Source: Nanobdellati archaeon
GTDB lineage: Archaea; B1Sed10-29; JAGVWA01
Reading direction: 5' to 3'
Assembly: GCA_018304505.1 (NCBI GenBank)
Contig: JAGVWA010000004.1
Coordinates: 1 to 56,236 of the forward strand
DNA: 56,236 nt
The first letter of the stretch is position 1; each line of letters opens with the position of its first letter. Of the stretch, positions 1-45,184 are shown piece after piece. The notes beneath the pieces are model-generated. The model was given only the letters and a program-made list of their open reading frames with translations. It did no database searches and was not told the DNA's origin. The translations under genes and the position numbers were made by a program.

Positions 1-1440
1 TAGTTTGCGTTTTTTCAAGCCTGCGATTACTTGTTCTCTTACGAGGTCTGTTGTGGTGCGTTGCCTCAGCAGGCTGATTTTTGGCGTGGGTTTGACTCGC
101 TCGATCGCGGTTATGAGTTGCGTTGCGGTTGCTGCGCCGTATTTCTTGATGTAGCCTTCGAGACGCGCGGTGGTTCTTTGCAGCGATTTCAGTTGTGCTG
201 TGGTTGTAATCAGCGTGGGTGCCGGCAATTCAGTCGCTGCGCCTGCCCGTGAGAGCATTTCTTTTTGCTTGGCTAGTTCTGTTTGTTGGGAGAGGGCGAG
301 CTGTATTCTGCTGTAGCGCTCGGCTGTGATCCTTTGCCTGTTCTGGTTTTTTGATAAAGAATTCATAATCAGTGCTTTCTGTTGCGAAAGGAATTGTCGT
401 CCAAGCTCCTCAGAAGTTACCCTTTGCATTGCATCTTCAATTTCTTTTTCTATTTTGGCTTCCCTTGAACTTCCTTGTTTGTACAGTAATAAATCAGTCT
501 GCTCTTCCGCGGCGTAGTCTCTTACTGCTTTTTCGTGTTCTTTGGGTAAAAATGTTTGTTTGAAGAATTCTTTTCTTTGTTTCTCGTCGAGTTCTGTGAA
601 GTGTTGTATTAGTGTTGTGGCTTGTGATTCTAGGCTTTCTTTTGTTTCGGGTTTGGTGGTTTGGAATGGTGCTAGTACTGTTTGAAGTTTTCTGGCGATT
701 GCTTCTCGTTCGGTGAGTTTTTTAAAAGCATTGAGGAATCTGTGTTGTCTTGCTTCTTGGGGTAATTTTTCTATGGATTTTTTGAATTCACTTGCGATAA
801 CGTGTCCAAATTGTAGTTTTATTGTTTCAATAGTTTTCTTTTCTTTCTTGCTCATCTCGATTATTGGTGTTGCTTTGCCTAAGTATAATATGGGTAAGTT
901 CTTCTTTTTTGCGAAAGCTTCTAGTTCTGGTTGTAGGGGGAATCGTGCTAATTCTTTTCTGTTCATCTTGACAAATTCATTAAACGATACGCTCTCGCTT
1001 ACTGTTAAAATCTTAAATTGTTGGAATCTTGTTTGTGCATCTTTCATTTCTTCATTTGCTTCTGCTATCGAATTATCTTCTACCTTTTTTCTTTTGTGGA
1101 GTAATATTGCTCCTGCAATTGCCACTGCGGGTGCCGCTGGTGCTAGAATTGGGGCCATTGCTGACATAAGTAGGATATCTGCGGCGATGACTTTTGCGCC
1201 AAGCGCTGTGGCAATACCTGATGCGGCCCCTATTTTGAGTTTTCTTTGGCGTTTTACATGAATGGGGCCATGGGTATTTTCATATACTTCTCTGAATACA
1301 ATCCTATCTTCTATTGAAGTTAGTAATCGACTTGCCTCTCTGTTTTGAGGGTTTTGTTTTAGTTCGTTCTCTACTTCAGTCTTATTTTTTTCAAGATTGG
1401 CAAATCGATTGATATCTTTTTGAATCTCTTCAGTATTCAT
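1..1440 (-). CDS. Large basic hypothetical protein, runs off left edge; its C-terminal part is paralogous to 1658..2761
   Basis: Not in the ORF track because there is no stop in the window. ATG at 1440 (MNTEEIQKDINRF...), hydrophobic GAASGIATALGA...AVAIAGAILL segment, and the same frame near the edge reads QLALSQQTELAKQKEMLSRAGA...EQVIAGLKKRKL. Confidence 0.75.
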   Translation of the reverse strand, partial: MNTEEIQKDINRFANLEKNKTEVENELKQNPQNREASRLLTSIEDRIVFREVYENTHGPIHVKRQRKLKIGAASGIATALGAKVIAADILLMSAMAPILAPAAPAVAIAGAILLHKRKKVEDNSIAEANEEMKDAQTRFQQFKILTVSESVSFNEFVKMNRKELARFPLQPELEAFAKKKNLPILYLGKATPIIEMSKKEKKTIETIKLQFGHVIASEFKKSIEKLPQEARQHRFLNAFKKLTEREAIARKLQTVLAPFQTTKPETKESLESQATTLIQHFTELDEKQRKEFFKQTFLPKEHEKAVRDYAAEEQTDLLLYKQGSSREAKIEKEIEDAMQRVTSEELGRQFLSQQKALIMNSLSKNQNRQRITAERYSRIQLALSQQTELAKQKEMLSRAGAATELPAPTLITTTAQLKSLQRTTARLEGYIKKYGAATATQLITAIERVKPTPKISLLRQRTTTDLVREQVIAGLKKRKL

Positions 1441-1691: not shown

Positions 1692-2761
1692 ATAATCATC
1701 ATTCCGTTATTTTTGGCTTTCGCTGTTATTGTTGTACCTAGTATACTTTGCGTAGCGCAGGTACTTAAAACTGTCGGTTGAAGTTCGGTGATTGTCGAAA
1801 AGAAAATCATCTCGTTTCCTGGCTCCGCGTAGCCGATGAAGCGTGCTTGTTTCAGTACTTTGCCTTGTCCTTGTTGTCTTTCTCTTTCGCGTGCGTATTC
1901 TTGTGGTGTTGGTGGCCTCATCGGCGTGGGTCTTGCAGGGGTTTGTGGGGTTGCGATTGTTCCTCTTTGGTGCCGTGCCGCGAGTTGGCGTGCTTGTCGT
2001 GACGCGTTTTCGTGCATTCTTAATGGGGGCGTGGGGACTGGTCGTAGTCCGAGTGTGATTTGTCTGGCGCCGAGTGTGATTTGTCTGGCGTGTTCGCGTG
2101 CGAGTTGTGCTGGTGTTGGTGTGGGTGGTGTGTATGTTGGTGGTTTTTGGGTGGGTGGTGCTTGTCGTTGGGGAACAGCCGATGGCCGTCTTTGGGGGGT
2201 AAGTGCGGGGGTTTGGGTTGGTCGTGCTTGTTGCGTGGCTCGTTTTTGTTGCTTTAGTGCTCGTCGCTCCTCTTTGATTTTTCGTCTGGCGTTAAGTTGT
2301 TTCAGGTTTTCCAGTGCTTCTTCCGCGTTGTTTTTTTGTCTTAGCACTTCGTTGACTTGTCCTAAGTATGTGGCGCGTTGCGTTTCAAGTTTCCTTTTTT
2401 TCAAGCCCGCAATTACTTGTTCTCTTACGAGGTCTGTTGTGGTGCGTTGCCTCAGTATGCTGATTTTTGGCGTGGGTTTGACTCGTTCGATTGCGGTTAT
2501 GAGTTGTGTTGCGGTTGCTGCGCCGTATTTCTTGATGTATTTTTCTAGTCGTGTGGTGGTTCTTTGTAGTGATTTGAGTTGTGTTGTGGTAGTGATGAGT
2601 GTTGGTTTTGTTGGTTGTGGTGTTGCGCCTGCTCGTGTGAGTATTTGGCTTTGTTTGGTTAGTTCTGTTTGTTGGGAGAGGGCGAGTTGGGTTTGGTCAT
2701 GTCTTTGGCGTGTTATTTGTGGAGTTGATTCCCGTTTCTTTATAAAGGTGTCTGCTAGCAA
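1658..2761 (-). CDS. Basic Q/R/T/P-rich hypothetical protein, possibly a partial duplicate of the 1..1440 gene
   Basis: 367 aa ORF with uncertain start; shares ~100 aa with the left-edge gene. Confidence 0.55.
   Translation of the reverse strand: MLADTFIKKRESTPQITRQRHDQTQLALSQQTELTKQSQILTRAGATPQPTKPTLITTTTQLKSLQRTTTRLEKYIKKYGAATATQLITAIERVKPTPKISILRQRTTTDLVREQVIAGLKKRKLETQRATYLGQVNEVLRQKNNAEEALENLKQLNARRKIKEERRALKQQKRATQQARPTQTPALTPQRRPSAVPQRQAPPTQKPPTYTPPTPTPAQLAREHARQITLGARQITLGLRPVPTPPLRMHENASRQARQLAARHQRGTIATPQTPARPTPMRPPTPQEYARERERQQGQGKVLKQARFIGYAEPGNEMIFFSTITELQPTVLSTCATQSILGTTITAKAKNNGMMIICGKQQKQTNT
2049..2090. repeat. 21-bp tandem repeat x2 (ARQITLG x2)
   Basis: ccgagtgtgatttgtctggcg occurs twice. 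Confidence 0.9.
2387..2686. repeat. ~300-bp diverged direct repeat of positions 1..300
   Basis: e.g. ttacttgttctcttacgaggtctgttgtggtgcgttgcctcag and agttctgtttgttgggagagggcgag are in both copies. Confidence 0.9.
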
Positions 2762-20295: not shown

Positions 20296-21123
20296 AATCG
20301 AGTAAGTTAGGCACACCACCATTTTGCGGAAGGATTAAATAGATCATCGTTCATAAACATAACGGTGATTATTTGTCTTTTGAAGAACTGCATCGTCTTG
20401 TTGGCTCTAAACCACTACAAATGGTTATAGCGCAGCATCCTGAGGTGATAGCATTATATAGGCTATCTTTAGGAAAAAGCCAGCGAGATTTTGCGCGTTT
20501 TCTGAATATGTCTCAAGCAAAAGTTAGTGAATTAGAAAGAGGCATTGGGAGAGTAAACAAGGAAAAGGCAGAAGAGTGGGCTAAGTTATTAAGCTCAGTC
20601 CGTCTTCTGTCAGTTCTTGAACTTGAAAATAATAGATCCCAGATACATAAACGTGGAAGGTTCTTCGGAGAATATGCTAAAAAGATGGCATTAAAGAGTG
20701 CGGAAAATGCTGCAATAATAAGTGCAACAAAAAAGAAGCCAACGCCACAAGAGCAAAGGCTTAAGTTGCTATTTGAAAATGCAGGCATAGAACACCAGCC
20801 ACAGGGGGTGTTTCCTGCACAAAATCAAAAATTTGTTGTAGATTTTGTTTTTCCGACCATCGATAATCCAAAAGTGATAGTAGAAGCCAAAGAGCTAAAC
20901 ACTTCATATAGAAAGAGGCTTTCTGTTATTGATTTAGCATATCGGGCAATTAAAATGAAACAAGCCAATCCAAAAATCAAGATGATAGCAATCATAGATA
21001 CAAATGGTTTGTTGCGGAGTTCCCGTAAAAGACTATCTCTAGATTATGATTATGTTCTAATAAATCCTTCCGATAATTTGGTGGTACAAACATTAAGAGA
21101 AGTCCTAGCTTCTTGATGTGGAT
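20296..21123 (+). other. 828-nt BHB intron in 16S (about E. coli 1363) carrying an endonuclease gene
   Basis: cgcgtg tcat ta|a atcgag...cttgat gtgg at|t cacgcg; terminal stem atcgagtaagttagg/cctagcttcttgat. Confidence 0.9.
20373..21116 (+). CDS. Intron-encoded XRE-HTH + Vsr/DUF559-like PD-(D/E)XK endonuclease
   Basis: SQRDFARFLNMSQAKVSELERG HTH; KPTPQEQRL...FVVDFVFP...KVIVEAK. Confidence 0.8.
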   Translation: MSFEELHRLVGSKPLQMVIAQHPEVIALYRLSLGKSQRDFARFLNMSQAKVSELERGIGRVNKEKAEEWAKLLSSVRLLSVLELENNRSQIHKRGRFFGEYAKKMALKSAENAAIISATKKKPTPQEQRLKLLFENAGIEHQPQGVFPAQNQKFVVDFVFPTIDNPKVIVEAKELNTSYRKRLSVIDLAYRAIKMKQANPKIKMIAIIDTNGLLRSSRKRLSLDYDYVLINPSDNLVVQTLREVLAS

Positions 21124-21248
21124 TCACGCGGTGAATGCGTCCCTGCTCCTTGCACACACCGCCTGTCAAACCACTCAAGCGGGGCTTTGGTGAGGCCGCA
21201 TCTCCTTGGTGCGGTCGAATCTAGGCTTTGTGAGATGGGTTAAGTCAT

Positions 21249-22002
21249 AAATTTGTTGTGACCTTTACCAGTAATGGTAAAGACAAACCTGGCTATATGC
21301 TGGAAACTCCGAGTATCTCAAACTACCAGAGTCTTATCAACTCCTGCCATCAAATCGATAGCAGAAATGGTGAAAATGTTTGGGTGCGGACAATCAGCAG
21401 GGAAGTCGTGATTGACCCCTCAGAGACTACACGCCGGGCTCCTATCAGAGTTGAATTAAATGAGCAAAGCATACCTCAAAGGAGCACTCCATGACGCAAC
21501 TGAGCGAAAATACACTTTCAGACTTTGTCAAAAACAACAAGCATATGTTGAATTCATTGCTAACCTCGTTAGAAAACTTGGATTCAATGCATGGACATAC
21601 AAAGAAGGCAAAACAAGAAACGTGTACATTGTAGAGTTCAGTAAAAAGATCCTTGATAGTTTCGAAATACAAACGAGACAAGACAAAATCGATTATATTC
21701 GAGGATACTTTGATGCGGAAGGGAGTGTACCGAGAAAGAAATTGGGATTTCAATATATATACATCGCGCAAAAAAGCAATCAAGAATTGTTGGAACTGGT
21801 TTCTTATCTAAATGAGTTAGGCATTGCTTGTGGAAAAATCCACGTGCCATCAACCAAAAAACCAGATTACTGGCGCTTTTACGCGTCAGCTAAATCAAGG
21901 AAAAAGTTCATAGAAACAATTGGTTCATGGCATCCCGAAAAAAGTCAACTGCTGGGGAAGATGATATAGTCCGCGCGCTATGGCGACATAGTGTACTAAG
22001 CG
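21249..22002 (+). other. Group I intron in 16S after U1498
   Basis: Exon ends in U (aagtcat), intron ends in G before aacaaggtagcc; IGS ttgttgtgac; P/Q/R/S elements atgctggaaac, aatcagcagg, tcagagactaca, gatatagtcc. Confidence 0.92.
21460..21969 (+). CDS. LAGLIDADG homing endonuclease in the group I intron
   Basis: YLKGALHDAT and YIRGYFDAEGSV motifs. Confidence 0.9.
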   Translation: MSKAYLKGALHDATERKYTFRLCQKQQAYVEFIANLVRKLGFNAWTYKEGKTRNVYIVEFSKKILDSFEIQTRQDKIDYIRGYFDAEGSVPRKKLGFQYIYIAQKSNQELLELVSYLNELGIACGKIHVPSTKKPDYWRFYASAKSRKKFIETIGSWHPEKSQLLGKMI

Positions 22003-22229
22003 AACAAGGTAGCCGTAGGGGAACCTGCGGCTAGATCACCTCCTTCCATAAGCCCACCCCAAAACTTTTAGGGGTGGGCAAACTGGGCAAAACACCAGAG
22101 CCCCTCCGGGGGCTCAACGGTGTTTTTGGAAAACACTTGAAAAATGTGCAAAGAATCGCAACACAGGAGCGCTATCGCGAATTGCGGTTTTCCTTTAATC
22201 TGGCAAGTTCATTAAAAACACGATGCCTC

Positions 22230-22699: not shown

Positions 22700-25600
22700 T
22701 AAATAAGCTATTTGGTGGATGACTCGGCTTGAAGTCTGACGACGGGCGTAGCAAGTTGCGATAAGCTTGGGGGAGATGCAGGCAATCCTTGATCCCAAGA
22801 TTCCCCAATCATTCCGAGAGGAAGAATCACGCGGTGAATTGAAACATCTCAGTAACCGCAGGAAAAGAAAGCAAGAGCGATTCCGTTAGTAGTGGCGAAC
22901 CAAAGCGGAACAGGGCAAACCGAATCCACCGTGGTGACGTGGTGGAAATGTGGTGTTCGGACCGTCTTCAACTTTCAAAGAGATCTCAAAGTCCCCTGGA
23001 ACGGGGCGGCGTAGAAGGTGATACCCCTGTAGAGAGGTCTGCGAAAGTCGTTATGGCGAGTTCCAGAGTAGCGTTACGTGAAAGTAGCGTGAACCCGGGG
23101 GTACCAACCCCTAACTCTAAATATGGCTCAAGACCGATAGAGGACTAGTACCGTGAGGGAATGTTGAAAAGTATCCTGAGAAGGAGCTGAAAAGATCTGA
23201 ACCCAAATAGCGATATGCGTTACTGCCTGGAAGCTAAAACCCCCGAACATTAGGAGGGGGTGTTATGCAGGGTGGTAACTTCAGTCATGAAGCACTGGGC
23301 AGGGAGTTTATTTATGTGGCGAGGCTAACCTGAAAAAGGGTAACCGAAGGGAAACCGAAAACCCGCAGCATGCGAGGGGTGGTGTCTTAAACTGGCACTA
23401 TAGTCACATGGGTAAGACCTGAAGCCTGGCGATCTACACGTGAGCAGGATGAAACCGGCGCTCAAGCCGGTGGAGGTCCGCAACTAGTGCACAATTCAAC
23501 TGGCTTAGGTGACTTGCGTGTAGGGGTGAAATTCCAATCGAGCCAGGCGATAGCAGGTTCCTATCGATACACGCCGTAGTGTGGCCTCGGTCGAGACAGA
23601 TGGCATGGTAGAGCACTAATTTGGAAGTTATGGAGAGAAATCTTCGGCTTCCTTGTTAAACTCCAAACGTGTCATCGTCGTAGAAGCCGGGAGTCGGGGC
23701 GTCGGGGTAAGCTTGACGTCCGGAAGGGGAACAACCCAGCCCATGGTTAAGGTCCCTAATAGGCAGCTAAGTGTAAATACAAACGATGTCACAACCCTAA
23801 AACAGCTGGGAGGTAGGCTCAGAAGCAGCCATCCTTTAAAGAGTGCGTCATAGCTCACCAGTCTAGGGGGGTGGCGCGGAAAATTGACGGGGCTAAAGTT
23901 GCCAACCGATACCATGGATACCAACAGTAGTTGGTAGCGTAGATAGGCGATGTGCGAGAGCAGAAGCTAGGCCGTAAGGTCTTGTGGATCTCGTTCATTT
24001 GAAAATCCTGCTGAAAGTAACAGCCACAGAACAGTGAGAACCTGTTCCGCCGAAAGGGCCAGGGTTTCTCAGCCATGCTTGTCAGCTGAGAGTAAGTCGA
24101 TCCTAAGTGCATTCCTAACCGACGTGCACAAAAGGGAATCAGGTTAATATTCCTGAACCTAACGGATACGCGCGGCGACGCATGTCCATCGCGTGACGCT
24201 TTGGGGTAGGTGAAGCACAACCGTCGTTGTGTCTAAAAGGAATAAGGTTGTGGAGTATCGTAATGATGAGAAACAACCTAAATCCTTGAATGGCCCACAT
24301 TTGTGGGTTTTGCCAAGCCCTGGAGTCCATGAAAAGCGTGATGGAAAGGATTCCGTTAGATCGTACCAAGAACTGACACAGGTGCCCCTAGCTGAAAAAG
24401 CTTAGGCGTGGCGGGCCAGCCGTCTTAAGGGAACTCGGCAAATTAGTCTTGTACCTTCGGAAGAAGAGATGCCTACCCTCCTTCGGGAATGGTAGGTCGC
24501 AGTGACAAGGGGGGAGCGACTGTTTACCAAAAACACAAGTCCTCGCTAGCCCGTGAGGGTTTGTACGGGGGCTGACATCTGCTCACTGCCAGTACGTGAA
24601 TACCTGGTACAACGGGAGTAAGCGCTGGTGAAGAGCGGGCCTAACTCTGAGGCTCAACACAAAAAGGAGTTAGGAAACAGCAACCACAACAAGCAACAAC
24701 AACCACAAAAAAAATTTGGTTAAGCAGTTAGTATACATGTATTACGCAGCCTGAAAAGGGCCTCGTAAAACCTGGCTATGTGCGGGAAACTCCGAAGTAT
24801 CCGACACTACCCGAGTCTTATCAACTCCTGCTATCAAATCGATAGCAGAAAAGGGTAAAAACGTGATCGGTGCGGACAATCCGCAGGGAAGTCGTGATTG
24901 ACCCCTCAGAGACTACACGCCAAGGGCTCTCGATTTATCGAGAGGCATGATATAGTCCGATCCTAATAGCGATATTAGGCACACCAATAATACAAAGGAA
25001 AACACAGATGCTTAAGGTAGCGTAATACCTCGTCGCTTGATTGGCGACTTGCATGAATGGTGTAACGTCTCCGCCACTGTCCCTAAGACGGACCCGGTGA
25101 AATTGTTTGCTGGTGAAGATACCAGTAATTCCTAGTGGGGCGCAAAGACCCCGTGGAGCTTTACCGCAGCCTGTTGTTATGGCTTGTTTTTGCATACATA
25201 GAGTAGTTGGGAGACTTCGAAGCAGAGTCTTCGGGTTTTGTGGAGTCGACGATGTAACACCAACTATACAAAAACAAGTTGTTTACTTCGAGAGAGGGAC
25301 AGCAGTAGGTGGGCGGTTTGACTGGGGCGGTACGCCCTTGAAACGATATCAAGGGTGCCCAATGGTCACCTCATCCGTGTTAGAAACACGGAGTAGAGAG
25401 TCAAGGACAAATGGTGGCCTGACAGTGTTCCGTACAGAGAGGAACGCTGACACGAAAGTGCGGCCTAGTGATCACCAATACTCTTTTGGTGGGAGTTTGG
25501 TCTGTCAGAAAAGTTACCCCGGGCGTAACGGGATCGTCGCGGGCGAGAGTCCATATCGACCCCGCGGTTTGTCACCTCGCTTTTGGCACGTGTCATCCTG

Positions 25601-34015: not shown

Positions 34016-34083
34016 AATTAACCCATGCGAGTTGTATGAATGTTTAAATACAAGTTATGCGCTAATAGTAAGTGGGGTGTACA

Positions 34084-34215
34084 TGGCGCCCGGAGAGGGA
34101 TTTCCGCTATGCGGAAAGCTCAACGAACTGCGTTCGTTGCAGATTTGAACCCTCGTTGCGGCAATGCCGCGCTCGTTTGTAAAACGAGTCCTCTACCCGG
34201 CTAAGGTATCCGGGC
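34084..34215 (-). tRNA. Atypical tRNA: TAC (Val) anticodon, long variable arm, G73, encoded CCA, 43-nt T-loop insertion (34101..34143)
   Basis: GCCCGGA/TCCGGGC acceptor, CTCGT-TTTACAA-ACGAG anticodon arm, GCGGC-ATT-GCCGC variable arm, GAGGG-TTCAAA[insert]T-CCCTC. Confidence 0.8.
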
Positions 34216-34326
34216 GTCATGCATATCTACTATCTTTTGTTCAATATAAGCTTTCCGTAAACCGATTTTAGTGAATTTGAGTTAATTTTGGTTTATTGAT
34301 TCTATTGATCTTACTTGATTTTATTT

Positions 34327-45075: not shown

Positions 45076-45184
45076 CGGGCCCGAGGGGATTCGAACCCCT
45101 GATCTACAGCTTAGAAGGCATACGACTTCATTACAACGGATTGTAAAAGAAGATGTCGCCCTATCCAGACTAGGCTACGAGCCC
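45076..45184 (-). tRNA. tRNA-Arg(TCT) with 34-nt non-canonical BHB intron at 29/30 (45120..45153)
   Basis: agg gcga ca|t...tcgt at|g cct BHB; spliced arm ACAGC-CTTCTAA-GCTGT; lies just downstream of argS. Confidence 0.92.

Follow-up and report, generated by a model that had tools for sequence, protein, structure and literature searches.

A long-armed tRNA gene with a valine anticodon and a T-loop intron in a Nanobdellati archaeon

Introduction

Naturally occurring tRNAs with a mismatch between body and anticodon provide raw material for genetic-code change and programmed mistranslation. In bacteria they are represented by the allo-tRNAs and, as further examples, by tRNAProX-type genes. Allo-tRNAs insert serine at sense codons in Escherichia coli tests; some of them are pseudogenes, and they often lie near toxin-antitoxin loci (PMC5389517). 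The nev-tRNAs are weakly expressed and their charging follows the body and not the anticodon (PMC3333845, PMC4033280); the table of PMC4033280 lists them for nematodes only. In some species of CUG-clade yeasts, tRNA-Ser(CAG) competes with the cognate tRNA (PMC2246281, PMC6041473). No archaeal tRNA with a body/anticodon mismatch was found in the literature searched, to which supplements and subscription journals did not belong, and archaeal passages of PMC7609411 concern tRNA-Sec and tRNA-Pyl. Here we describe a gene that combines a long variable arm and discriminator base G73 with the valine anticodon UAC, located at positions 34084..34215 of contig JAGVWA010000004.1 (56,236 nucleotides, nt; hereafter the window) of a Nanobdellati archaeon from groundwater. 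An archaeal example of a mismatched tRNA would extend the phenomenon to the third domain, with the testable prediction that seryl-tRNA synthetase (SerRS) charges the tRNA and that serine occurs at GUA. It would also show such a tRNA arising in a 0.9-Mb genome, where each gene is usually assumed to be needed.

Results

The window is one entire contig of a 917-kb, 93%-complete genome (G000), and it is archaeal, its 16S and 23S rRNAs and RNase P RNA being all of archaeal type in Rfam. The genome size suggests an organism of DPANN type. Manual reading of the minus strand revealed a tRNA gene with a 7-bp acceptor stem (GCC start), a 5-bp T stem and the anticodon loop TTTACAA, and with standard pairs (G-U included) at 21 of 21 positions of the four standard stems (Table 1). 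Removal of a 43-nt intron from the T-loop yields a mature RNA of 89 nt with a 7/5 cloverleaf, in which the universal nucleotides U8, A14, G18 G19, U33, G53 U54 U55 C56, A58 and C61 are all present. A preliminary description of the locus had listed the 7/5 cloverleaf, the GCC start, a 5-bp variable arm, G73 and the anticodon TAC. All of these features were found, and the assignment as a class II tRNA with UAC and G73 stands; the cloverleaf, however, exists only without the 43-nt insertion, which that description left unmentioned, and both the intron and the paralog family reported below had been missed.

Among 200 in-silico deletions around the T-loop, 61 produced a tRNA in ARAGORN, in every case tRNA-Val(tac) (61/61), and each of six equivalent registers of the 43-nt deletion gave a tRNA call. 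The fold of the precursor had z = -4.59, and as good a fold was obtained in 0 of 200 shuffles. In unspliced form the gene received no ARAGORN call and no Rfam match at the gathering score, and none of the 34 matches of a genome-wide Rfam tRNA search lay at 34084-34215. A sensitive Rfam search with the intron-containing sequence detected only the D and anticodon arms, with 16.8 bits against a cut-off of 29 for RF00005. The gene escaped both programs because its T-loop is interrupted by the 43-nt intron. Contigs from runs X3 (another study), X1 and X4 (one study, X1 being maybe the source sample) had 0 differing letters over the anticodon and variable arm, so the locus is not a read error, a doubt that had been raised about the anticodon and is now removed. 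We take 34084..34215 to be a genuine gene, whose product is an additional, UAC-bearing class II tRNA.

Table 1. Features of the tRNA locus, of its paralogs in G000 and of comparable genes in a relative. BHB, bulge-helix-bulge; BRE, transcription factor B recognition element.
Feature	Coordinates	Strand	Basis or remark
Whole pre-tRNA gene, 132 nt, class II, anticodon UAC, one intron	34084..34215	-	In-silico intron removal; fold z = -4.59
5' exon: acceptor 5' strand, class I-type D arm (4-bp stem), anticodon arm, variable arm, T-stem 5' strand, T-loop 54-59	34144..34215	-	Manual cloverleaf
3' exon: T-loop position 60, T-stem 3' strand, acceptor 3' strand, G73, CCA	34084..34100	-	Manual reading
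Intron, 43 nt, at tRNA position 59/60, BHB register	34101..34143	-	Relaxed BHB; intron-less DNA contig; intron family in relatives
17-nt variable region (5-bp stem and 3-nt loop, preceded by 1 unpaired nt and followed by AAC)	34155..34171	-	No BHB; kept in intron-less allele
Anticodon UAC (decodes GUA), then A37 A38 like the order's canonical tRNA-Val	34179..34181	-	Direct reading
Discriminator G73	34087..34087	-	Direct reading
CCA end encoded in the genome	34084..34086	-	Direct reading
BRE/TATA-like putative promoter box, 27 nt upstream of tRNA 5' end	34243..34254	-	Same distance kept in five family loci
Upstream block common to five paralogous loci	34243..34290	-	BLAST and MAFFT, 78-89% identity
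Downstream flank, more loosely common to paralog loci	34017..34083	-	Five-locus comparison
Member 1: window gene			UAC, intact, intron
Member 2	C11:633-717		Intact, no intron, anticodon UAG, G73 then CC
Member 3	C3:85693-85827		Intron 43/43 identical; acceptor 5' strand unpaired with 3' strand; 8-nt anticodon loop
Member 4	C14		Fragment without acceptor 5' strand or T arm
Member 5	C3:72006		Mini copy
Two extra class II tRNA genes of G002	L122:1466-1550 and L150 ~441-527		

The gene exists in addition to the canonical valine decoders. A normal tRNA-Val(UAC), whose presence elsewhere the preliminary description had proposed to check, was found at C3:130510-130645; it has A73, a 5-nt variable loop and two introns, and was called as Val in 35 of 35 in-silico splice registers. 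A tRNA-Val(CAC) with A73 is located at C3:141086, and no tRNA-Val(GAC) was found in the 93%-complete genome. A pattern of the UAC loop plus T arm matched in 11 genomes among the other 17 of the order. In ten of them the match was an ordinary tRNA-Val(UAC) of class I, with A73 and a variable loop of 5 nt; the remaining match, in G001, was not a tRNA, and in no relative did the pattern reveal a long-armed tRNA-Val(UAC). Compared with the tRNA-Val(UAC) of the ten relatives, the window gene differs in both acceptor stem and D arm. It is an addition to the canonical tRNA-Val(UAC) and tRNA-Val(CAC), and it is not orthologous to the tRNA-Val of the order.

The intron of the window gene can be placed equivalently at 34099-34141, with 5 nt repeated at both of its ends. 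A canonical BHB consists of two 3-nt bulges with a 4-bp helix between them, flanking helices and symmetric cuts; that of the window intron is a relaxed form, with an outer helix of 5 bp (the T stem), three of four central pairs, an inner helix of 3 bp and AA/U in both bulges. One DNA contig of run X4 (55 nt, depth 2.6 vs about 10) skips exactly these 43 nt, and therefore intron-plus and intron-minus alleles coexist; their exact removal restores the T-loop of the tRNA. One EndA domain match was detected in G000 (99.2 bits, in a 175-aa frame). In G015, an intron of like sequence architecture was present in the T-loop of tRNA-Met(CAT); in G008, two such introns interrupt tRNA-Lys(CTT), one in the D-loop and one in the T-loop, and the D-loop copy forms a canonical BHB (4/4 central pairs, 8-bp inner helix). 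The occurrence of this family in tRNA-Lys(CTT) and tRNA-Met(CAT) suggests a spread of introns between tRNA genes in the order. Its shared layout, seen at L004 (G008:C5) and L002 (G015:C100), is CTGCA, a hairpin, TGAGCTTT, a second hairpin and AAAT. A loose scan of the genome for the intron motif gave 65 matches, of which only 2 were true copies by eye, and the intron signature matched one contig of the viral collection, which was not a tRNA.

Archaeal introns at 59/60 and shared intron families are documented (PMC4090602), as are DPANN EndA and disrupted tRNA genes of DPANN lineages that standard predictors miss (PMC5829648). The window intron resembles archaeal non-canonical introns in its 59/60 site, in its relaxed BHB and in the distribution of one family across tRNAs and positions, as in Thermoproteales (PMC4090602). 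It shows no essential difference from the introns described in these sources except for the intron-plus and intron-minus alleles in one population (PMC4090602, PMC5829648), and is in itself ordinary for archaea.

The variable region was examined for splice signals as well. Among hairpin excisions leaving a 4-5-nt loop, none created a BHB, the best having three of four central pairs and no outer helix. The intron-less DNA allele of X4 retains the variable-arm hairpin, and every family member having a variable region carries a hairpin at that place, the hairpins differing from one another and being followed by similar unpaired bases. From these three observations it follows that the variable region is a true long arm and not an intron. 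It is thus very improbable that the hairpin is a second mini-intron whose removal would leave a class I tRNA-Val, as in the case, foreseen in the preliminary description, of a variable arm that is spliced out. Archaeal introns at 45/46 are documented (PMC4090602) and the tRNA genes of G000 are heavily interrupted; nevertheless, hairpins that differ at one place among family members are what class II arms show, and G73 would remain non-Val even after such an excision.

The window gene belongs to a family of five loci in G000 (Table 1). Its 3' 72 nt (T arm, intron and acceptor 3' strand) recur at C3:85756-85827 with 96% identity, and a BRE/TATA-like box precedes the RNA start by 27-30 nt at all five loci. 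At five pairs (acceptor 4-69 and 7-66, D 12-23, anticodon 31-39, T 50-64), members 1 and 2 differ on both sides in a compensatory manner, and every pair of the four standard stems of the window copy is intact, a pattern typical of post-duplication selection on the cloverleaf; the arm stem is re-paired as well. In the anticodon loop, position 37 is G in member 2 and A in the window copy, matching Val decoders. Member 3 additionally has one mismatched T-stem pair, and its acceptor mispairing and 8-nt anticodon loop indicate that it is probably a recombinant pseudogene of two family types. The encoded CC(A) is a mark of the family, since CCA is encoded in 0 of the 27 T-loop-anchorable tRNAs among the 33 ARAGORN calls of G000 and CC only in member 2. 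A canonical tRNA-Leu(UAG) with A73 and a D-loop intron is located at C16:5251-5369, so the UAG member is also extra. With this UAG sibling and three decayed copies beside the window gene, the family is young and of fast turnover.

Searches for further members gave little. A whole-gene DNA search of 40 relatives returned the paralog of the own genome, intron-family matches and further short matches; those of the latter that were fetched were chance matches to coding DNA. A long-arm UAC pattern search of the phylum, which needs an intact T-loop and is blind to T-loop-interrupted genes, did not reveal the family in another genome, and a metagenome scan with the promoter block gave one match, on a contig that ends before the gene. 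The neighbours of the five loci are housekeeping genes (HisRS, a class I W/Y-type synthetase, FtsZ, an NOG1-type GTPase, the PolD small subunit, TldD/PmbA and TauE), with a ParE toxin gene near the C14 fragment and no integrase or viral gene among them. An integrated element or att site was rejected as the main explanation of the family's origin on the grounds of these housekeeping neighbours, of the lack of an integrase and of the HisRS and tRNA genes between the C3 copies. Also rejected were an Asn-like origin of the 5' part, which has only generic class I D-arm similarity, and a G004 tRNA(UAG) resembling the sibling, which is a bacterial-type tRNA-Leu on a suspect contig. At that locus (L084, G004:C109), bacterial-type tRNA-Leu genes with encoded CCA adjoin another bacterial-style tRNA, and the contig is probably a contaminant. 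With regard to the family units themselves, a perfect 20-nt direct repeat brackets the UAG member (L042, G000:C11:1-5000, at 547-566 and 768-787), a related motif, GGGTT(T)AA(AC), was found at both ends of the other units, and copies of the downstream block were present at four further places without a tRNA.

The amino-acid identity of the tRNA was approached through a census of intron-free class II tRNAs with perfect acceptor stems across the order, with member 2 and two bacterial-type G004 genes left out. G73 was present in 12 of 12 tRNAs with a Ser anticodon, and A73 in 10 of 10 archaeal-type tRNAs with a Leu anticodon. The Leu arm core TGG.TTAGT.CC was invariant in 9 of 9 Leu sequences, whereas Ser arms were variable; the family arms are without this core, and the family has G73, not the Leu-type A73. 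Features relevant to SerRS are a long variable arm, G73 and G30-C40, and the Val determinants are A35 and C36 in all three domains and A73 in bacteria and eukaryotes (PMC9976931). The window tRNA carries all three of the former. The candidate SerRS of G000 is a 427-aa frame at C3:131892. It shares A35 and C36 with tRNA-Val, but not A73, the class I body, the 5-nt loop or orthology, and it also lacks a Ser-type body (3-bp D stem, Ser D loop) and a Ser anticodon. With these Ser marks, no Leu identity and no Val A73, charging with serine would be the most likely.

Covariance models for Ser and Leu separated held-out controls cleanly. Ser controls scored 79.7/53.3/46.5/45.5 bits with the Ser model vs 54.5/37.0/34.7/36.5 with the Leu model, and Leu controls 49.9/41.1/43.0 vs 86.7/76.2/62.0 bits. 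Member 2 reached 65.8 bits for Ser vs 70.9 for Leu; the partial scores of the window gene (9.2 and 21.0 bits) are not meaningful, as the intron breaks the alignment. Profile hidden Markov models for Ser and Leu were built from the order's canonical tRNAs with the anticodon masked, and the window gene was spliced in silico. It scored 16.4 bits on the Ser and 20.1 bits on the Leu profile, with cognate controls at 38-63 bits (Ser controls, 44.8 and 38.0 on the Ser profile). The Ser-minus-Leu difference was -3.7 for the window gene, +5.1 for member 2 and +2.5 for member 3, compared with +32.3 and +21.6 for Ser controls and -39.3, -36.4 and -18.0 for Leu controls. Besides, the D arm of the window tRNA is of a generic class I type. 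This poor fit to both profiles, together with the class I-type D arm, points to a divergent class II lineage with Ser identity marks, rather than a tRNA-Ser with an altered anticodon. The serine-type body attributed to the gene in the preliminary description is therefore not supported: of its features, only the long arm, G73 and G30-C40, which bear on identity, are Ser-like.

Codon meaning was analysed in one protein, the PolD large subunit, by comparison with 17 loci of relatives. GTA columns were V in 59% of 170 cells and in 4 of 4 conserved columns, CTA columns were L in 73% of 166 cells and in 8 of 8 conserved columns, and Ser was outside the six commonest residues at both. GUA columns thus correspond to Val in relatives, and the codon is not reassigned: judged by this one protein, in which the outcome is clear, GUA is still valine and the code of G000 standard. 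The earlier view that wholesale recoding of GUA was unsupported is borne out by these columns. A reassignment of GUA, and of CUA for the sibling, to serine is hardly conceivable. The existence of long-armed G73 tRNAs with UAC and UAG anticodons speaks for it, but the PolD columns contradict it, both codons are common (GTA 14.4 and CTA 11.7 per 1000) and canonical A73 tRNA-Val(UAC) and tRNA-Leu(UAG) are present. The PolD large subunit (L046, G000:C14:27968-31885) also has an insertion, absent from most relatives, with a weak intein-domain match (about residues 873-1058).

Extra long-armed tRNAs were also found in relatives. In G002 (78% complete), two CC-encoding class II tRNAs with G73 (Table 1) share their acceptor and T arms exactly but carry anticodons for Phe (GAA) and Asp (GUC); genes of class I type for both anticodons are present in the same genome. 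The GAA tRNA has a true Ser body (Ser 72.5 vs Leu 52.7 bits; masked difference +19.3). Across 31 phylum genomes, a search for tRNAs in which CC follows G73 gave 36 matches in 14 genomes, with 0 control matches. Thirty of the 36 loci were fetched; they corresponded to 29 distinct places, 25 of which were resolved. Eight were class II: four Ser and four non-Ser, the latter being member 2, the two G002 genes and a tRNA(GAG) of G028. This G028 tRNA (L172, G028:C68, tRNA end near 2574-2597, minus strand) is a Leu-bodied class II tRNA with G73 then CC, whereas archaeal-type Leu tRNAs of the order have A73 (10/10).

The tRNA set of G000 is incompletely seen by automatic prediction. Intron-aware ARAGORN found only 33 tRNAs, missing the Val, Thr, Glu, Gln and Cys isotypes, and at least three of the missed genes carry D-loop introns, so this set needs manual curation. 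Neither default ARAGORN nor the Rfam pass over the window at the gathering score found an intron-containing tRNA-Arg(UCU) at 45076-45184 (minus strand), which was recovered by genome-wide Rfam (44.6 bits) and intron-aware ARAGORN. The gene studied here illustrates the number of DPANN tRNA genes that escape standard predictors. Two further observations concern the rRNA genes of the window: a group I catalytic intron in the 23S rRNA gene (24720-24979; Rfam RF00028, 66.2 bits), and an unusually long distance of about 1.9 kb from the 16S rRNA end to the spacer tRNA-Ala (20353-22229), one frame of which has 16 stops.

Discussion

We tentatively propose, with a probability of roughly 0.45, that the window gene encodes a minor missense tRNA accepting serine, or serine and valine alike. 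The gene would be transcribed from its own BRE/TATA-like promoter, and the 43-nt intron would be excised at the relaxed BHB by EndA and the exons joined by tRNA ligase. The spliced tRNA would be charged with serine by SerRS, which would ignore the anticodon and respond to the long arm, G73 and G30-C40; valyl-tRNA synthetase (ValRS) might possibly charge it with valine too, through A35/C36. Such an extra tRNA would compete weakly with the canonical tRNA-Val at GUA, resulting in low-level Val-to-Ser substitution.

Several results weigh against this proposal. With a D arm of class I type, the tRNA may hold its long arm in an orientation unlike that of a genuine tRNA-Ser, so that SerRS could be blocked, and the masked profile scores of the spliced gene are far below those of cognate controls. 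GTA is a common codon, and efficient insertion of Ser would therefore be costly. No RNA run containing the locus was found, and transcription, splicing, serine charging and ribosome use of the tRNA are inferred. Moreover, A35 and C36, the main ValRS determinants, could make the tRNA a Val acceptor. In that case ValRS would read A35/C36 and tolerate G73 and the long arm, and the gene would be an unusual class II tRNA-Val that adds GUA capacity without mistranslation. We consider this unlikely. Both nucleotides are Val determinants in all three domains (PMC9976931), A37 A38 in the loop are those of the order's canonical tRNA-Val, a harmless additional Val decoder would easily persist, and, with no tRNA-Val(GAC) found, Val decoding capacity could be limiting. 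However, A73 is present in all canonical tRNA-Val (10/10 relatives and both G000 genes) and is listed as a Val determinant in bacteria and eukaryotes (PMC9976931), and the window gene is not orthologous to those tRNAs. The UAG sibling has the same G73 and body, so the constant features of the family are Ser-like and not matched to the anticodon.

The remaining points against serine insertion concern the persistence of the family, and they bear equally on a non-translational explanation: the gene could be a recent duplicate in decay, or a tRNA-like RNA with a different role, such as has been suggested for many allo-tRNAs (in regulation, in a conflict or toxin-antitoxin system, or as a target of recombination). 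Decay is evident in three of the five copies: one is a chimera whose acceptor stem does not pair, one a fragment and one a mini copy. The family is found only in the G000 lineage; searches of the other genomes among the 31 of the phylum did not find it, and acceptor/D-arm signature scans of viral and genome collections gave 0 matches each. In addition, scores against both class II profiles are low, and the units are dispersed along with their flanks, one of them being bounded by the perfect 20-nt direct repeat. The ParE toxin gene near the C14 copy recalls the many allo-tRNAs near toxin-antitoxin loci, some of which are inactive (PMC5389517). On the other hand, the window copy has kept its four standard stems unbroken and all universal nucleotides, and it comes with a promoter box as well as a precise intron. 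Its five compensatory changes relative to the C11 copy speak for post-duplication selection on the cloverleaf, and the neighbours are housekeeping genes, among which neither an integrase nor a viral gene was found. We therefore regard the non-translational explanation as doubtful, and retain a minor serine-accepting or dual tRNA as the preferred reading.

A broader proposal is that the DPANN order repeatedly yields small families of extra long-armed G73 sense-codon tRNAs that are charged with serine and used. The cases concerned are UAC and UAG in G000, GAA and GUC in G002, and the Leu-bodied GAG tRNA with G73 in G028. We hold this generalization distinctly doubtful; if true, these families would be an archaeal counterpart of allo-tRNAs and nev-tRNAs, and would imply that organisms with minimal genomes mistranslate deliberately, at a low level or under certain conditions, or use tRNAs in a conflict system.

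With respect to known systems, tRNA-Ser(CAG) of CUG-clade yeasts is long-armed, has G73 and makes a hydrophobic (Leu) codon be read as Ser, as proposed here for GUA; in those yeasts the codon is changed or ambiguous genome-wide, whereas GUA columns of G000 remain Val (PMC2246281, PMC6041473). Like the window gene, nev-tRNAs combine a class II body with an anticodon for a class I amino acid (theirs Gly and Ile) and exist beside canonical tRNAs, but they occur in eukaryotes, accept Leu and are conserved throughout nematodes, whereas the present family has G73, is restricted to one lineage and is partly decayed (PMC3333845, PMC4033280). Allo-tRNAs share with the family the long arm, G73 (or U73), mostly non-serine anticodons, including GUC and Leu anticodons, and the condition of being extra. 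They are bacterial and have an 8/4 or 9/3 acceptor/T-stem arrangement, in contrast to the archaeal, 7/5 family described here, in which, moreover, the D arm is of class I type, CC(A) is encoded, unusually among the tRNA genes of G000, and two copies contain a T-loop intron (PMC5389517). Although the defining features of neither allo-tRNAs nor nev-tRNAs are present, the comparison suggests a functional likeness of the family to both.

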